In this document: positions 19,701-27,457 of the stretch, piece after piece
Position numbering within the stretch: the first letter of the stretch is position 1
How the letters are laid out: the number at the start of each line of letters is the position of its first letter
Source of the DNA: Escherichia coli O127:H6 str. E2348/69
GTDB lineage: Bacteria; Pseudomonadota; Gammaproteobacteria; Enterobacterales; Enterobacteriaceae
NCBI RefSeq assembly: GCF_000026545.1
Contig: NC_011601.1
DNA length: 64,000 bases
Strand: one strand, 5' to 3'
Made by a program: the position numbers and the translations under genes
The notes under the pieces: generated by a model
Told to the model about the DNA's origin: nothing
The model's database searches: none
The model's input: the letters and a program-made list of their open reading frames with translations, nothing else

Positions 19701-20380
19701 TATTACTCAAACGCCAGCTAAATCTATTAGGATATGATGTTGATGAAGCCACTGATGGTGTGCAAGCGCTACACAAAGTCAGTATGCAACATTATGATCT
19801 GCTTATTACTGACGTTAATATGCCGAATATGGATGGTTTTGAGTTGACTCGCAAACTCCGTGAGCAAAATTCTTCCTTACCCATCTGGGGGCTTACAGCC
19901 AACGCACAGGCTAACGAACGTGAAAAAGGGTTAAATTGCGGCATGAACTTATGTTTGTTCAAACCGTTGACTCTGGATGTACTGAAAACACATTTAAGTC
20001 AGTTACACCAGGTTGCGCATATTGCACCTCAGTATCGCCACCTTGATATCGAGGCCCTGAAGAATAATACGGCGAATGATCTACAACTGATGCAGGAGAT
20101 TCTCATGACTTTCCAGCATGAAACGCATAAAGATCTACCCGCCGCGTTTCATGCACTAGAAGCTGGCGATAACAGAACTTTCCATCAGTGTATTCATCGC
20201 ATCCACGGTGCGGCTAACATCCTGAATTTGCAAAAGTTGATTAATATTAGCCACCAGTTAGAAATAACACCTGTTTCAGATGACAGTAAGCCTGAAATTC
20301 TTCAGTTGCTGAACTCTGTAAAAGAACACATTGCAGAGCTGGACCAGGAGATTACTGCTTTCTGTCAGCAAAATGACTAA
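16787..20380 (+). CDS. evgS: Hybrid sensor histidine kinase
   Basis: 1197 aa; periplasmic domain, HisKA/HATPase, receiver and HPt domains. Confidence 0.92.
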   Translation: MKFLPYIFLLCCGLWSTISFADGDYIEYRGISSNNRVTLDPLRLSNKELRWLASKKNLVIAVHKSQTATLLHTDSQQRIRGINADYLNLLKRALNIKLTLREYADHQKAMDALEDGEVDIVLSHLVASPPLNDDIAATNPLIITFPALVTTLHDSMRPLTSSKPVNIARVANYPPDEVIHQSFPKATIISFTNLYQALASVSAGQNDYFIGSNIITSSMISRYFTHSLNVVKYYNSPRQYNFLLTRKDSIVLNEVLNRFVDALTNEVRYEVSQNWLDTGNLAFLNKPLELTEHEKQWIKQHPDLKVLENPYSPPYSMTDETGSVRGVMGDILNIITLQTGLNFSPITVSHNIHAGTQLNPGGWDILPAAIYSEDRENNVSFSEVFITTPYVFVMQKAPDSEQTLKKGMKVAIPYYYELHSQLKEMYPEVEWIKVDNASAAFHKVKEGELDALVATQLNSRYMIDHYYPNELYHFLIPGVQNASLSFAFPRGEPELKDIINKALNAIPPSEVLRLTEKWIKMPNVTIDTWDLYSEQFYIVTTLSVLLVGSSLLWGFYLLRSVRRRKVIQGDLENQISFRKALSDSLPNPTYVVNWQGNVISHNSAFEHYFTDDYYKNAMLPLENSESPFKDVFSNTHEVTAETKENRTIYTQVFEIDNGIEKRCINHWHTLCNLPASEHAVYICGWQDITETRDLIHALEVERNKAINATVAKSQFLATMSHEIRTPISSIMGFLELLSGSGLSKEQRVEAISLAYATGQSLLGLIGEILDVDKIESGNYQLQPQWVDIPTLVQNTCHSFAAIAASKSIALSCSSTLPERYLVKIDPQAFKQVLSNLLSNALKFTTEGAVKITTSLGHINDNHAVIKMTIMDSGSGLSQEEQQQLFKRYSQTSAGRQQTGSGLGLMICKELIKNMQGDLSLESHPGIGTIFTITIPVEITQQVAAVEAKAEQPITLPEKLSILIADDHPTNRLLLKRQLNLLGYDVDEATDGVQALHKVSMQHYDLLITDVNMPNMDGFELTRKLREQNSSLPIWGLTANAQANEREKGLNCGMNLCLFKPLTLDVLKTHLSQLHQVAHIAPQYRHLDIEALKNNTANDLQLMQEILMTFQHETHKDLPAAFHALEAGDNRTFHQCIHRIHGAANILNLQKLINISHQLEITPVSDDSKPEILQLLNSVKEHIAELDQEITAFCQQND

Positions 20381-20386
20381 ATAGCG

Positions 20387-20414
20387 GCTCCCACAATGTT
20401 CAAATGTGGGAGCT
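20387..20414. terminator. Bidirectional terminator between evgS and yfdE
   Basis: GCTCCCACA ... TGTGGGAGC hairpin with flanking T/A runs. Confidence 0.5.
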
Positions 20415-20435
20415 ATTTACCAGCACATCTTACAT

Positions 20436-21581
20436 TTATGATGAGAACTCCTGGCGAATTTGTTCCCCATGCTGGTCGAGCGTTGCCGCTCCCGGCATAA
20501 CATGCGGGTCCGCGCAGCCGCTGATTTTTATCGGATTACCCGGCATCATTATTCCCCCGGCTTCAATCAACATATTTCTCGCCTGAGTTTGTGGTAAATT
20601 AATGGCCTCAGCCACACTTAATAACGGCGCGACGGGCACACCAACTTCATGTATTCTGGCTAACCAAACTTCAGCTGCCTGCGTTTTTAACGTTCGCTCA
20701 ATATATTGTTTAAGAATAGCCTGGTTTTGTACGCGTAAAATATTGCTGCTAAATCGGGGATCATTAACCAGTTCTGTAAGCTCCAGTGCCTGGCATAACA
20801 CAGAAAAAAGCTTGTCATTACCACAACAAATCGTAATCGGCTTATCCTGAGTATCAAAAACATCAAAAGGTGCCATGTAGGGGTGACGATTTCCCAGACG
20901 TTGTGGTGACTTCCCAGTCGCGATATATGCCATCAGTCCGTGCTCCAGAAAACTCAGAGTGGCATCAAACATCGCTATATCGACATGCGCCCCTCGTTGG
21001 CTCTTTTCGCGGCCATAAAGTGCACTCACTATTCCACTGAATAAATAGACACCGCCACATAAATCCGCAAGAGAGGTACCCACGCGCACTGGCGGAGCAT
21101 CAGGGTATCCCGTTTCCATCATTATCCCGCTCATTGCCTGAATGATGGTATCGTAGGCAGGAGCATCTTTTAGCGGGCCGGTATGTCCGAAACCTGACGA
21201 TGAAGCATAGATGAGGCGCGGGTTGATTTCTTGTAGCGTTTCCCATGAAAACCCGAGTTTTTCCATTGTACCTAGGCGAAAATTCTCAGCTAATACATCC
21301 GCTTGTTTAAGCATATTTATAAATATGCTTTTATCGTGATCATTCTTTAAATCAAGAACCACACTCTCTTTGCCATGATTAATAAAACTGTAATAGAGTG
21401 ACTGTCCATCCACATAGGGACCAAATGTGCGGGTATCATCACCATGACCCGGCGGCTCAACTTTAATTACCCTTGCACCCATATTACAAAGAAGTTGAGT
21501 TCCGAAAGGCCCATTAAGGACATGCGTCATATCGATAACTAATAAGCCTTCAAACGGCCCTTTGCATTCATTATTTGTCAT
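20436..21581 (-). CDS. yfdE: Acetyl-CoA:oxalate CoA-transferase (family III CoA transferase)
   Basis: 381 aa from MTNNECKGPFEGLLVIDMTHV; CaiB/BaiF family. Confidence 0.85.
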   Translation of the reverse strand: MTNNECKGPFEGLLVIDMTHVLNGPFGTQLLCNMGARVIKVEPPGHGDDTRTFGPYVDGQSLYYSFINHGKESVVLDLKNDHDKSIFINMLKQADVLAENFRLGTMEKLGFSWETLQEINPRLIYASSSGFGHTGPLKDAPAYDTIIQAMSGIMMETGYPDAPPVRVGTSLADLCGGVYLFSGIVSALYGREKSQRGAHVDIAMFDATLSFLEHGLMAYIATGKSPQRLGNRHPYMAPFDVFDTQDKPITICCGNDKLFSVLCQALELTELVNDPRFSSNILRVQNQAILKQYIERTLKTQAAEVWLARIHEVGVPVAPLLSVAEAINLPQTQARNMLIEAGGIMMPGNPIKISGCADPHVMPGAATLDQHGEQIRQEFSS

Positions 21582-21654
21582 TTGCTTATGCCTTGAAAAA
21601 AGCCGAAGGTGAAAAGACACTTCGGCATTTATGTAAAATAAATAACATGATTAA

Positions 21655-22599
21655 TTATGAAACCAGTCGACTGACATAAATCCACAAAGGAGCCGTGACG
21701 ACAAAACCCAGTACGCTCACAGCCAATGACGCTGTACCAGTGCGGGTGTAGACATTAAACCGACTGGCAATAATGATTCCGGAGAATGCCGGCGGTAATG
21801 CGCCTGCCAGTACCATCATCTGCAGATGTTCGCTGTTCAAATGACATGCCATACCGACGAGAAGCAGCGCCAGTGGCATCAGAATCAGCTTCAGGAAAGT
21901 GTTATAAGCAATTTCGGCACTGAACTCGAATTTATGTGCAGCCAGAGTCAACCCCGCAGCAAATACCGCTACCCCTGAGTTAGCCTTCGCAATCAGATTA
22001 AAGGTTGGGTCCCATGCTGCCGGAATTTTTACCCCAACCAATACCAGGATCGTTGCCAGAACAGGTGCCCATACTACTGGCTCCTTTGCCGCAGAAATTA
22101 ATGCGCTCAGATTACTATTCTTCTTACCATCCGCTCCTGAGGAAGGATTCAGCAAATACAGACCAATAGGAATAGTAATTGCGTTAACAATAATAGAAAT
22201 AATTGCTACCACTAAACCTGTTGATACGGAATCACCATAAATAGGATCGAGAACTGCAAATCCCAGGAATCCGATGGTAGGTGAACCTGCAATTAATGCA
22301 CATACTGCTGCTTCTGCATGGGTACGTTTAAAAAATTTGTAGCAACCAAACCAGGAGAAAAAGAAACATCCGACAATAACCACAAGTGATACAAGGGTCA
22401 GACGAGTGTCCGCAAAAATCATTTCCCTGTTTGCCCGGGTAATAGAAACAAATAGGGCCGCAGGAAGAGCGTAGTTTAATACCAGTTTATTAAATGCCCG
22501 GGCTTGATCTTCTGAAAAAGTTTCTCGTCTGCCGCTAAAATAACCCAACAGCATGATTACGATAATAGGCAATAAATCGCCAATAAAAAATGTTAGCAT
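21655..22599 (-). CDS. yfdV: AEC-family membrane transporter
   Basis: 314 aa polytopic membrane protein; position between yfdE and oxc. Confidence 0.85.
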
Positions 22600-22668
22600 A
22601 ATAGTATTTCCGATAAGGGTCCCCTCACCATCGCATAATGAGTTGGCAAGAGGAGACGATGTCAGTAT

Positions 22669-24363
22669 TTAATTACCAGCGACTTGTTTTGGGTTAAGTT
22701 TGGTAATATGGCCACTTTCAGTTCCTGCTGCAGGGTCGATGACCACATTAATAATGGTCGGTTTGCGCGACTGAATACCGGTGGTTAAAGCATGACGAAG
22801 TTCATCTGTCGTGGTGACGTTATAGCCAACGCCACGAAACGCATCCATTAATTTGTCATACCTTGCATGGTGCAGCAGATCCGTTGGTGATGGTGCACCA
22901 GCGCCACTGAGATCAACACCGTCTCCTCTGTAGATGCCGCCATTATTAAAAATAACGATCGTCACCGGCAGGTTATATCGACAAATCGTTTCAATCTCCA
23001 TCCCACTGAAACCAAAAGCACTATCACCTTCAATGGCGACAACCGGAGAACCAGAGGTCACGCTAGCACCGATGGCATAGCCCATACCGATGCCCATGAC
23101 ACCCCAGGTGCCACAATCCAGACGACGACGTGGTTTATACATATCAATAATATTTCGTGCATTATCCAGGGTATTTGCCCCTTCATTAACTAAATAAATA
23201 TCCTGGTTCTCGCGCAAAACATCGCGCACAGCACTCAATGCATTAAAGTAATTTAATGGTTGGGTATCTGTACTTAACTTTTCATGCATTTTTTGTGCAT
23301 TTTGCTGCTTGTGGATATTTAAAATATCGCGCCACACCAGTGGAGTCGTGAATGTGTTTTGTTTCAATTCTGCCAGCATACCTTGCATACTGGATGCAAT
23401 ATCGCCAACGACTGGAACAGCAATGGGGCGGTTGCTGTCAATTTCCTGCGGTTCAATATCCAGTTGAATAAACTGTGTATCTGCCGCCCATCCTTTTTTA
23501 CCGTGTGCCAGTAACCAATTCAGTCGTGCACCGACAAGCATGACAACGTCAGCATTTGCCAGGGCAAACGAACGCGCAGCTGCCGCAGAAAGTGGATGCG
23601 TATCTTCGAGGATCCCTTTCGCCATAGACATTGGCAGGAATGGAATCTGGGCACTTTCAATAAATTCACGAAGCTGTTCATCAGATTGTGAATACGCCGC
23701 GCCTTTGCCAAGGATAACTAATGGTCGTTCAGCTTTTGCTAAAAGCGAAATTGCGCTAGCGACTGACTTTGGGCATGGCAATAATGCTGGCGACGGATTT
23801 TCAACTTTAACAATCGTGGTTAACGCTTCGTCTTTTTCCATCGTCGCGGCCAGGACATTTGCTGGCAAATCAAGATAAACACCGCCAGGACGACCCGATA
23901 CTGAGACCCGGATAGCGCGTGCCAATGCAATGCCAAGATCCTGCGGCTGATTAACGCGAAATGCTGCTTTGGCATACGGTTTTGCCGCATTCATTTGGTC
24001 CAGCTCTTCATAATCACCTTGCTGGAGATCGACGATCGCGCGGTCGCTGGAGCCGCTAATCATGATCATCGGAAAACCATTTACCGTTGCATTGGCCAAT
24101 GCAGTCAAACCGTTGAGGAATCCTGGCGCAGACACTGTCAGGCAGATCCCTGGTTTTTGGGTAAGAAAACCGCTTGCTGCAGCGGCATAGCCTGCCGACT
24201 GCTCATGACGAAAACCAATATAACGAATGCCTTCCGCCTGGGCATGGCGCGCCATATCCGTCACAGGAATACCTACAACACCATAAATAGTGTCAATATT
24301 ATTCTGTTTTAATGCTTCAACGATGATATGCATACCATCTGTCATTTGAAGTTGATCTGACAT
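22669..24363 (-). CDS. oxc: Oxalyl-CoA decarboxylase (ThDP-dependent)
   Basis: 564 aa; ThDP-binding motif GDSAFGFSGME...NNGGIY. Confidence 0.9.
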   Translation of the reverse strand: MSDQLQMTDGMHIIVEALKQNNIDTIYGVVGIPVTDMARHAQAEGIRYIGFRHEQSAGYAAAASGFLTQKPGICLTVSAPGFLNGLTALANATVNGFPMIMISGSSDRAIVDLQQGDYEELDQMNAAKPYAKAAFRVNQPQDLGIALARAIRVSVSGRPGGVYLDLPANVLAATMEKDEALTTIVKVENPSPALLPCPKSVASAISLLAKAERPLVILGKGAAYSQSDEQLREFIESAQIPFLPMSMAKGILEDTHPLSAAAARSFALANADVVMLVGARLNWLLAHGKKGWAADTQFIQLDIEPQEIDSNRPIAVPVVGDIASSMQGMLAELKQNTFTTPLVWRDILNIHKQQNAQKMHEKLSTDTQPLNYFNALSAVRDVLRENQDIYLVNEGANTLDNARNIIDMYKPRRRLDCGTWGVMGIGMGYAIGASVTSGSPVVAIEGDSAFGFSGMEIETICRYNLPVTIVIFNNGGIYRGDGVDLSGAGAPSPTDLLHHARYDKLMDAFRGVGYNVTTTDELRHALTTGIQSRKPTIINVVIDPAAGTESGHITKLNPKQVAGN

Positions 24364-24416
24364 GATTAATAACCTCGAAATTTTTATAAATTGGGAGCCA
24401 GAAGCCCCCGTTAATA

Positions 24417-25667
24417 TCAGATGGCGTGGTTTTGCTTCATTGCAGCAATTTCATCGTCGCTATAACCCAGCTCCTGCAATACAGCAGCGGTATGTTCACC
24501 TAATAGCGGAGCAGCTTTAATATCCGGCGTAAAGGCAGAGAACTTCATTGGACAACCAACTGTCAGATATTTTCCACGCAACGGTTGTTCCACTTCGACA
24601 ACACTGCCACTTTGGCGCAACGAGGGATCAAGTGAAATTTCTTTCATACTTAAAACCGGTGCACAAGGAATATCAAACTGAGTCAAATAGGCCACAGCTT
24701 CATGTTTATCAATAGTGACAGTGTATTTTTCGATTTCAGCAAAAATATCGAAAATATGTGGCTGTCGGGCATGGGCTGTACTGTATGCCGGATCGGTAAT
24801 CCATTCTGGTTTGCCGATGGCTTTACAGGTGTTTTCCCAGTTTTGCTCCTGAATAGTGAAATAAATATAGGCGTTAGGATCGGTTTCCCAGCCTTTACAT
24901 TTCAGGATCCAGCCAGGCTGACCGCCCCCACCTGCATTACCACCGCGGGGAACTGCATCACCAAATGTGCCATTCGGATACTGCGGGTATTCTTCCAGAT
25001 ACCCCAACTTATCGAGACGCTGCTGGTCGCGTAATTTCACGCGGCAAAGGTTCAACACGGCATCCTGCATTGACATGGTGACTCGTTGCCCACGCCCCGT
25101 TTTTTCGCGATGCAGCAAAGCAGCAAGTAAACCGATCAGCAAATGCATTCCGGTGTTGCTGTCACCCAACGCTGCAGCGCTTACCAGCGGCGGACCGTCC
25201 CAAAAACCTGTAGTAGATGCCGCGCCACCCGCTGCCTGAGCAACGTTTTCATAGGCTTTTACATTCACATAAGGCGAACACTCATCAAACCCTTTGATCG
25301 AACCAAAAATCAGACGTGGATTGATTTCTTGAATATGCTCCCAGGTGAAGCCCATATGATCAATGGCCCCTGGATGAAAGTTCTCGACTAAGATATCAGC
25401 TTCGCGGATCAGCTTTTCCATTACCTCTTTGCCTTCCGCTGTTTTGGTATTTAATTCAATAGAACGTTTGTTACTGTTAAGCATGGTGAAGTAAAGCGCA
25501 TCGATATCGGGAATATCTCGCAGCTGGTGACGCGTTACGTCACCAACGCCGGGACGTTCAATTTTAATGACGTCAGCGCCAAACCAGGCCAGCATCTGAG
25601 TACAAGATGGGCCAGATTGCACACCGGTGAAATCGAGAACTTTAATTCCTTGAAGTGGAGTTGACAT
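24417..25667 (-). CDS. frc: Formyl-CoA:oxalate CoA-transferase
   Basis: 416 aa; family III CoA transferase paralogous to yfdE. Confidence 0.9.
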
Positions 25668-25917
25668 AGCAATACCTATTAGTTAATTAAATATGTGTTA
25701 ATTTAGCGTTTATTTAAGGCATAACGCCTCTATAAATAATCTGCAAAATATCGTCGTAGCTGCACTCGATATTTTTAAATTCCTGTATCAAGTGCTGAAA
25801 ATCATTTCATCGCCACTTCCAATTCCTTTCTGCATGGTAAGTAGTGAGGACGAAAAGAAGAATATAATAAATATTGGTTCGCGGTAATCAGAGAGAGCCG
25901 TGACATTTGTGATGTTA

Positions 25918-25935
25918 TTCTTACAACTGTAAGAA
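25918..25935. promoter_or_regulatory. EvgA box upstream of frc
   Basis: Perfect inverted repeat TTCTTACA-AC-TGTAAGAA. Confidence 0.6.
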
Positions 25936-26178
25936 GTGTCAGTGATTTACAAGTAAGGTTATGATTACACTATTTAAAGCGTACCATAAAATATAACATA
26001 ATAAATGATTTGTGATAACATGGGATTATTGCGGTTTACTTTGAGGAAGATAAAGTGCGAGTTTATAGAACCGCGAGCGCCAAATAATTTTATGACCACA
26101 ACCTGTCGTATTGTGGTCATAAAAAATTGTCGGCTGGAGGGAGTTAAATCCTTTACCTCAATATATTGCCTGTCAGGT

Positions 26179-26811
26179 TTAGTTCACAAACAGTGCTTCG
26201 CTATCGACGATGATTCCATCTTCCGCACCTTTAAGCGCCAGGTTTGCCTCGTAGTATTGCTTTTTATCAAGCAGTTTCTGTGCATCAGCAAGTGCATTAC
26301 GAGTCTGTTTAAGCGGCATCAAATATTGGTTTTCCATTACACCAACACCGGCCAGGCGAAGCTCTTCCATTGCACCCTTTTTATCCCCTTTCGCCATTTT
26401 TTCGTTGGCAATTTTTATCGCGGCTTCTTTTTCGGGGGTTGCTACATAACTCTCAGAAATTCCGACAGATGCATTAATGACAATATATTGGTCATCATTG
26501 ACGTTGGTCTTTTTACCTGGTTTAGCGAACTTTGCCCATTCGGTACTATCATCTGACAGCAAAGCGGAAGCTTCATTGGTCAGTTCTTTTGCCTTTTCCG
26601 GATCGCCATGAAACAGAGCCAGGCGCGCTACCTGCACGTCACGCATCGCATATAAACCTTGTTCAGAGATACGCTCTGCTGCTGCCGTTTTCTGGGTTTG
26701 CTTAACTTGCTGAGTTTGCTGTTGTGCCGCTACCGGTGCATTATCAGTAGCCCATACAGTTGAAGATGCCAGAATTGCTGTGACCATCGTAGCCATAATT
26801 AAACGTTTCAT
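26179..26811 (-). CDS. yfdX: Periplasmic protein YfdX (EvgA regulon)
   Basis: 210 aa with signal peptide; translation matches YfdX. Confidence 0.85.
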
Positions 26812-26946
26812 ACTTACCTCATTCTTTAACAGTTTTAGAAAACGCCGCCATCATATTGGGTGAGCATGAAATGAGAAATCAGAGAGCAACGGTCATTTTG
26901 AAAGGGTTATCTTACAACTGTAGTTATTATCGCAAAGCCGCTTTTA

Positions 26947-26964
26947 GTCTTACAGTTGTAGGAA
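26947..26964. promoter_or_regulatory. EvgA box upstream of yfdX
   Basis: Reverse strand reads TTCCTACA-AC-TGTAAGAC; a weaker second copy lies at ~26905..26925. Confidence 0.55.
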
Positions 26965-27105
26965 TCTGCTTCCTGTCGCAGAGAACTATTCTTATATACC
27001 ACAAAGATATGTCATTTATTATATCGATGTAAATACTGATTAATTAAATATAAATACAGCCATAACATCGTAGGTTTTCAGTGAACCATTTTCAGGATAT
27101 TTTCT

Positions 27106-27381
27106 ATGAAAGTAAACTTAATGCTTTTTAGCTTATTTTTATTTGTCTCTATTATGGCATGCAATGTTTTTGCATTTTCTATTTCTGGTGGTGGTAGTGA
27201 GGCGAGCTATAAAGAGACAGAAAAAACGTCAGTGATGACGACAACGCATTCTACAAAACTTCAGCCATCACAGGCGATTTTGTTTAAGATGAGAGAAGAT
27301 GCACCACCATTAAACCTCACAGAAGACATCACGCCTACTTATCCGACAAAGGCGAATTATCTCATTCATCCTTTGCGATAG
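27106..27381 (+). CDS. ypdI: Small lipoprotein
   Basis: 91 aa; signal peptide with cysteine; position. Confidence 0.75.
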   Translation: MKVNLMLFSLFLFVSIMACNVFAFSISGGGSEASYKETEKTSVMTTTHSTKLQPSQAILFKMREDAPPLNLTEDITPTYPTKANYLIHPLR

Positions 27382-27457
27382 CGTCTGTCACCTGGCAGGT
27401 GAACAATCATGTCTGATGCTGATGTGAACACCTGCCCAAATGAGCCATCCTGACCCA

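Follow-up and report, generated by a model that had tools for sequence, protein, structure and literature searches.

Genes and features of the locus

The window, meaning the whole stretch of DNA analysed here, comprises 64,000 nucleotides from Escherichia coli O127:H6 str. E2348/69. Gene names follow the RefSeq annotation of the E2348/69 chromosome (NZ_CP059840.2), which is 100% identical to the window over the 1.4 kb around the regulatory boxes described below, and the list of open reading frames agrees with this annotation. The genes are arranged in the order emrKY-evgAS-yfdE-yfdV-oxc-frc-yfdX (Table 1), with evgA-evgS (16168..20380) separated from the end of yfdE by 56 bp. The G+C content of E. 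coli is roughly 51% overall, and in the region from 13000 to 27400 of the window most of the emrKY-evgAS-yfd block lies at 36-47%. This low G+C, together with the flagging of H-NS on the yfdX-frc spacer in a table of SELEX results, fits a horizontally acquired, silenced island that is switched on by EvgA.

Two small reading frames were also noted. In the K-12 annotation, the 9-codon open reading frame evgL (b4781) overlaps the start of evgA, and by homology its equivalent in the window would lie at ~16142-16171. On the plus strand, a 183-aa open reading frame antisense to yfdX (26005-26556) is without RefSeq annotation and is probably spurious.

Table 1. Coordinates of genes, EvgA boxes and other sequence features (positions refer to the window unless a K-12 region is named).
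Feature	Position	Strand	Remarks
emrK	14590-15753	-	RefSeq and ORF list
emrK/evgA intergenic EvgA box	15927..15944	.	TTCTTACGCCTGTAGGAT; fourth match in the window, two mismatches
evgA	16168-16782	+	regulator, 204 aa, intact
evgS	16787-20380	+	sensor kinase, 1197 aa, intact
yfdE	20436-21581	-	RefSeq and ORF list
yfdV	21655-22599	-	RefSeq and ORF list
oxc	22669-24363	-	RefSeq and ORF list
frc	24417-25667	-	formyl-CoA transferase; first gene of frc-oxc-yfdV-yfdE, unit ends at 20436
Candidate frc -10 elements	25869->25864; 25866->25861	-	TATTAT; TATATT; read from the sequence
TCTGATT element	25886..25892	-	+26..+32 after the frc box
frc EvgA box	25918..25935	.	16/16 consensus; 250 nt 5' of the frc start codon
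Intrinsic-terminator-like hairpin after yfdX	26088..26124	-	15-bp stem, then tail UUAUUUGG
yfdX	26179-26811	-	RefSeq and ORF list
Candidate yfdX core promoter	26850..26877	-	TTCTCA-16-TATGAT (26877->26850), promoter scan
yfdX proximal, weaker EvgA-like box	26909..26926	.	three mismatches; 97 nt 5' of the ATG
yfdX distal EvgA box	26947..26964	.	one mismatch; 135 nt 5' of the yfdX ATG
ypdI	27106-27381	+	RefSeq and ORF list
safA box	K-12 L086 4072-4089		1 mismatch; 111 nt to start codon
ydeP box	K-12 L086 6731-6748		2 mismatches; 243 nt to start codon
yegR box	K-12 L087 5414-5431		1 mismatch; 106 nt to start codon

EvgA boxes upstream of frc and yfdX

The perfect inverted repeat that an earlier note on this DNA had claimed upstream of frc lies at exactly the coordinates given there. 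Positions 25918-25935 read TTCTTACAACTGTAAGAA, with the arms arranged as TTCTTACA-AC-TGTAAGAA; both 8-nt arms are fully complementary, and the AC spacer alone is not self-complementary (16/18). Against the degenerate consensus TTCYTACA-NN-TGTARGAA (TTCYTACANNTGTARGAA) the frc box has 0 mismatches and is the top match among all boxes found. Its arms are unchanged at 16/16 positions in six lineages (E2348/69, K-12, N3, 13P484A, CS5L and SCPM-O-B-8794), while adjoining bases differ. The boxes of K-12, EC332, A27 and FHI_NMBU_10 are identical to that of the window, and across the compared strains one spacer base differs, in SCPM-O-B-8794 only, where the spacer reads GC on the gene-sense strand. 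A 52-mer centred on the box was recovered from 5403/5426 complete E. coli genomes, and its common 94.1% identity class reflects three K-12 substitutions, none of which falls inside the box.

The comparison with SCPM-O-B-8794, a divergent lineage whose EvgS is 90% identical to that of the window, also shows where conservation begins and ends. The frc box itself is 94% identical and the following ~125 nt are 86-89% identical, whereas identity falls to 75% in the stretch between the hairpin and the box, the least conserved portion of the yfdX-frc spacer, and to 77% in the ATG-proximal part of the frc leader. The contrast between the box with its downstream ~125 nt (86-94%) and the flanks (75-77%) favours a transcription unit of its own for frc.

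A near-perfect second box had been claimed upstream of yfdX and was located at 26947-26964, where GTCTTACAGTTGTAGGAA (reverse strand TTCCTACAACTGTAAGAC; TTCCTACA-AC-TGTAAGAC in the direction of the gene) departs from the consensus at one position. The weaker half-site pair placed by the same note at ~26905..26925 corresponds to ATCTTACAACTGTAGTTA at 26909-26926 (TAACTACA-GT-TGTAAGAT in the direction of the gene), and the two boxes are 38 bp apart. The arms of the distal box are unchanged in every strain compared, and the K-12 distal box differs from that of E2348/69 in its spacer only (AT in K-12). Compared with SCPM-O-B-8794, identity is 94-97% over both boxes and on from the proximal box as far as the ATG; constraint upstream of yfdX is weakest in the inter-box spacer, with only 60% of its columns invariant in four strains. 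The frc and yfdX boxes had further been described as sharing the same spacer, which holds when opposite strands are compared and fails on the gene strand, where the spacers are GT and AC, respectively. Since that comparison mixes strands and the spacer varies between strains, we regard the box spacer as uninformative.

The EvgA-like box and its adjoining spacer form a 38-bp unit that is repeated in tandem upstream of yfdX (26909-26984). Most strains, including the window and K-12, carry two copies, and FHI_NMBU_10 carries three (L005 1543-1636). A three-copy query was matched at >=99% identity in ~414/5426 complete E. coli genomes, or roughly 8%, a count that is approximate as blast pieces were merged. 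The three-copy arrangement could tune the strength of the yfdX response to EvgA, and the natural polymorphism between two and three copies is a ready-made test of how the number of sites relates to that response.

Significance of the motif and relation to the EvgA regulon

The degenerate consensus was scanned with up to 3 mismatches allowed. Four matches were seen in the 64-kb window against 0.6 expected, and 0/100 shuffles reached four. For the exact frc box with <=3 mismatches, 0.04 matches were expected in the shuffled window and 3 were seen, which represent two distinct sites, as two of the three are both strands of the frc box itself. In other species, ~1.5 Mb of unrelated sequence gave two 3-mismatch matches only. 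The fourth match in the window, in the emrK/evgA intergenic region, served as an internal positive control for the scan, and the same pattern was run on K-12 regions fetched by coordinate, where boxes were recovered upstream of safA, ydeP and yegR (Table 1).

As a separate observation, the emrK/evgA box has two mismatches in E2348/69 (ATCCTACAGGCGTAAGAA) and is a perfect match to the consensus in SCPM-O-B-8794 (TTCCTACAGGTGTAAGAA, L006 19729-19746).

The abstract of the 2003 paper by Masuda and Church reportedly describes an 18-bp inverted repeat found in six regions upstream of seven operons under direct EvgA control, and gel shifts with each of these regions. These six regions agree with the six box-bearing regions recovered here. 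The direct EvgA regulon of K-12 (ydeP, safA/b1500-ydeO, yegR, emrKY/evgAS, yfdX and yfdW, that is, frc) shares not only its consensus with the boxes of the window but also their placement, about 100-260 nt 5' of EvgA-induced genes; the gap of 250 nt between the frc box and its ATG resembles the 243 nt of ydeP. The frc and distal yfdX boxes match the K-12 sites described 5' of yfdW (frc) and yfdX, seen here in strain E2348/69, and no difference in kind separates the K-12 regulon from the boxes of the window. Identification of the motif as the EvgA box, which the earlier note had assumed, is upheld by the recovery of the emrK/evgA, safA, ydeP and yegR boxes with one consensus and by the EvgA binding to these inverted repeats that is reported in PMC3720670.

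A terminator-like hairpin between yfdX and frc

An intrinsic-terminator-like hairpin lies 55 nt past the yfdX stop codon and ~150 nt ahead of the frc box. Its folding energy is -25.4 kcal/mol (z -6.5), with 0/200 shuffles as stable. With a stable stem-loop, a U-rich tail and a position just past the stop codon, it is predicted to be a Rho-independent terminator; G:C pairs make up only 4/15 of the stem, and its U tract is not continuous. Comparison between strains indicates that the fold is maintained, as the stem in EC332 (L004) carries a compensatory A:U -> G:C change (AUGACC...GGUCAU -> AUGGCC...GGCCAU), and in SCPM-O-B-8794 substitutions are found in the loop only. A search of 25500-27200 against Rfam gave two far-sub-threshold microRNA matches only, which are accounted for by the terminator hairpin and by the pairing of the yfdX boxes.

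Promoter geometry and a signature downstream of the box

Two overlapping candidate -10 elements lie downstream of the frc box (Table 1), and at these positions other strains read TATCAT/CATATT. An automatic promoter scan returned no minus-strand sigma-70 site between the frc box and frc, where the -35 region is poor. Judging from the position of the -10 candidates, we infer that frc transcription starts near 25854-25857, ~60-65 nt past the box, and that the leader is ~190 nt long; the box would then be centred near -70, in a class-I-like geometry. The putative 190-nt leader, when folded, gave no significant structure (z -1.7). For yfdX, the promoter scan returned a candidate core promoter that shows no change in 5 strains and hardly any in SCPM8794. 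It would place the yfdX start near 26843 and the box centres near -74 (proximal) and -112 (distal).

Six promoters (frc, proximal yfdX, emrK, ydeP, safA and yegR) were then anchored on their boxes. Over the 40 nt that follow the box, 10 columns show >=5/6 identity; in 5000 shuffling trials, the number of such columns averaged 1.4 and never exceeded 7. Five positions (C+9, A+10, T+26, C+27 and T+31) are invariant across all six, and the candidate signature of these EvgA-target promoters reads CA at +9/+10, TC at +26/+27 and ATT at +30..+32. For example, CTCTCTGATT ends at +32 after both the frc and the proximal yfdX boxes (25886-25917 and 26877-26908), TCTGATT occupies +26..+32 at both, and ydeP, safA and yegR carry TCYTATT at +26..+32.

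Since the proximal yfdX box had been picked post hoc, the signature was retrained on emrK, ydeP, safA and yegR only. The proximal yfdX box scores 15/22 on the retrained signature (background 3e-5). For the frc box the score is 10/22 (background 0.033), a marginal value, and the opposite flank of the safA box, taken as a control, reaches 11/22 (background fraction 0.011). The distal yfdX box scores 6/22, and 0.17 of the background already reach 8/22. On these scores, the proximal yfdX box appears to be solidly in the EvgA-promoter register and frc marginally so, and the register is absent at the distal box. A shared origin for the promoter modules of frc and the proximal yfdX box was also considered and set aside, the local alignment downstream of the boxes being only suggestive, with 13/500 shuffles reaching its score.

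The closest studied homologue of EvgA is BvgA, and BvgA-activated promoters of Bordetella (fha, bvg P1) carry a high-affinity inverted repeat far upstream and weaker sites towards the -35 region. By analogy, the CA and TCYTATT-like elements resemble additional EvgA half-site cores, which recur at +3..+10 and +25..+32 after the box, at distances of 20 and 42 bp from its left arm. In contrast to the BvgA promoters, these putative secondary EvgA sites would be without matching right-hand halves. It is conceivable, and we offer this as a tentative idea that is more probably wrong than right, that EvgA promoters are richer than the 18-bp box, that the proximal yfdX box is the one in register and the distal box a high-affinity recruiter, and that copy number tunes yfdX. 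The proximal box and the conserved register downstream of it could guide footprint or ChIP-exo work on EvgA. No mention of the proximal box or of the 38-bp copy-number variant was found in the EvgA literature, in which the 2003 paper is represented through a paper that cites it; the only new points of this analysis may be the register in which the proximal box lies and the variation in copy number.

Independent control of frc-oxc-yfdV-yfdE

Gene order, the hairpin, and the occurrence of the boxes with their statistical significance and conservation are results of the present analysis; binding by EvgA and EvgA-dependent induction are taken from the literature. According to Mullins et al., who cite Masuda & Church 2003, yfdX and yfdWUVE are separately induced and have an inverted repeat each, and EvgA binding is reported at the repeats 5' of both (PMC3720670). 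In evgS-constitutive mutants, frc and oxc belong to the genes with the strongest induction, and the EvgA sites found by Johnson et al. 2014 were confined to genes whose regulation by EvgA had been shown before, among which frc/oxc are listed (PMC4283999). Acid pH induces yfdX, frc, oxc and yfdV (PMC10746267). When EvgA is overproduced, the induction of yfdX exceeds that of yfdWUVE by orders of magnitude (PMC4759549), which fits either two units or an efficient terminator. Finally, genomic SELEX in K-12 places a peak of RNA polymerase holoenzyme in the yfdX-frc spacer, where H-NS is flagged as well (PMC3946193).

We therefore consider it very likely that the three boxes are EvgA sites and that they serve two EvgA-activated units, yfdX and frc-oxc-yfdV-yfdE. 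The proposal of the earlier note that the internal box allows frc-oxc-yfdV-yfdE to be driven without yfdX draws support from the literature, the terminator-like hairpin, the RNA polymerase SELEX peak and conservation; within the sequence, it is the conservation of the frc box and the hairpin lying between yfdX and that box which support an EvgA-driven unit of its own. The promoter of frc would be situated downstream of the internal box. It should be noted that the boxes and the independently driven frc unit are already published (2003, as cited in PMC3720670). Hence, reading of the raw sequence alone recovered a genuine, experimentally established regulatory layout, and current understanding is unchanged.

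The arrangement would work as follows. In mild acid, EvgS would phosphorylate EvgA, a NarL/FixJ-type response regulator that is encoded ~6 kb from the boxes within the same low-GC island, and phosphorylated EvgA would bind the 18-bp inverted repeat as a dimer. On its boxes, EvgA would recruit RNA polymerase and would probably counteract H-NS silencing of this AT-rich region. The first unit would consist of yfdX, with a promoter preceded by the strong distal and the weak proximal box, and would end at the hairpin. The second would consist of frc-oxc-yfdV-yfdE, with its own promoter past the perfect box at 25918-25935. The outcome would be induction of the oxalate/formyl-CoA module, and through the two EvgA-controlled units E. 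coli would couple its oxalate/formyl-CoA metabolism to the sensing of acid. Some read-through from the yfdX promoter into the frc unit may also occur, given that much of the literature still writes of a 'yfdXWUVE operon'.

The alternative that survives best is a single operon, yfdX-frc-oxc-yfdV-yfdE, transcribed from the yfdX promoter only, in which the internal box binds EvgA without having a promoter of its own. The box might then be an H-NS anti-silencing or occupancy site, or might aid read-through past the hairpin. The wide use of the name yfdXWUVE operon for the cluster and the co-induction of all five genes speak for this arrangement, as do the scan, which finds no good minus-strand -35/-10 pair downstream of the frc box, and the weak match of the frc flank to the EvgA-promoter signature. 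Nevertheless, yfdX and the frc box are separated by a strong hairpin that is conserved and shows a compensatory change, the ~125 nt past the box are conserved above their flanks, and RNA polymerase holoenzyme binds the spacer in SELEX (PMC3946193). The induction levels of yfdX and yfdWUVE are also very different, and the account of Mullins et al., citing Masuda & Church 2003, has the two separately induced with an inverted repeat each (PMC3720670). We consequently regard a single operon as unlikely, and two EvgA-activated units remain the preferred reading.

A palindromic box has no intrinsic direction, and the promoter scan gives three plus-strand sigma-70-like sites at 25936-26002, abutting the frc box. 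The box could accordingly be imagined to drive a plus-strand promoter at its right (GTGTCA-18-TATGAT, 25936-25965), the product being an RNA antisense to yfdX or the 183-aa open reading frame at 26005-26556. Conservation argues against this, as the -35-like GTGTCA of E2348/69 is GCGCCG in K-12 and in most other strains, and the region right of the box is the least conserved in the spacer (75%). Moreover, the 183-aa frame is unannotated in RefSeq, and the plus-strand flank scores 7/22 on the EvgA promoter signature. The plus-strand promoter was rejected on the grounds that its -35 is not conserved, and we consider such an arrangement very improbable.

Least probable of all is that the palindromes are chance matches or sites of another regulator: a consensus match in general is no proof of binding, but chance would give only 0.04 matches, the arms stay the same between lineages while the flanks vary, the motif stands at four other EvgA-target promoters, and EvgA binding to these inverted repeats is published, as cited in PMC3720670.

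frc-oxc clusters outside Escherichia

A scan of the genome collection with Frc had one Escherichia representative, Moellerella and Providencia among the matches listed. Moellerella wisconsensis (L007) and Providencia stuartii (L008), both at 10001-15640, have the same frc-oxc-yfdV order as E. coli, and at the protein level Frc is 86-87%, Oxc 70-73% and YfdV 75-77% identical. No yfdX, evgAS or EvgA box was found within 10 kb of either cluster. The occurrence of frc-oxc-yfdV without evgAS, yfdX and the box suggests that the box travels with EvgA control and not with frc, and, among the matches listed, EvgA control of frc-oxc appears from these sequences to be specific to Escherichia. The two clusters differ from that of E. 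coli in one further respect, as the place of yfdE is taken by a second frc paralogue with 74-89% identity to Frc.
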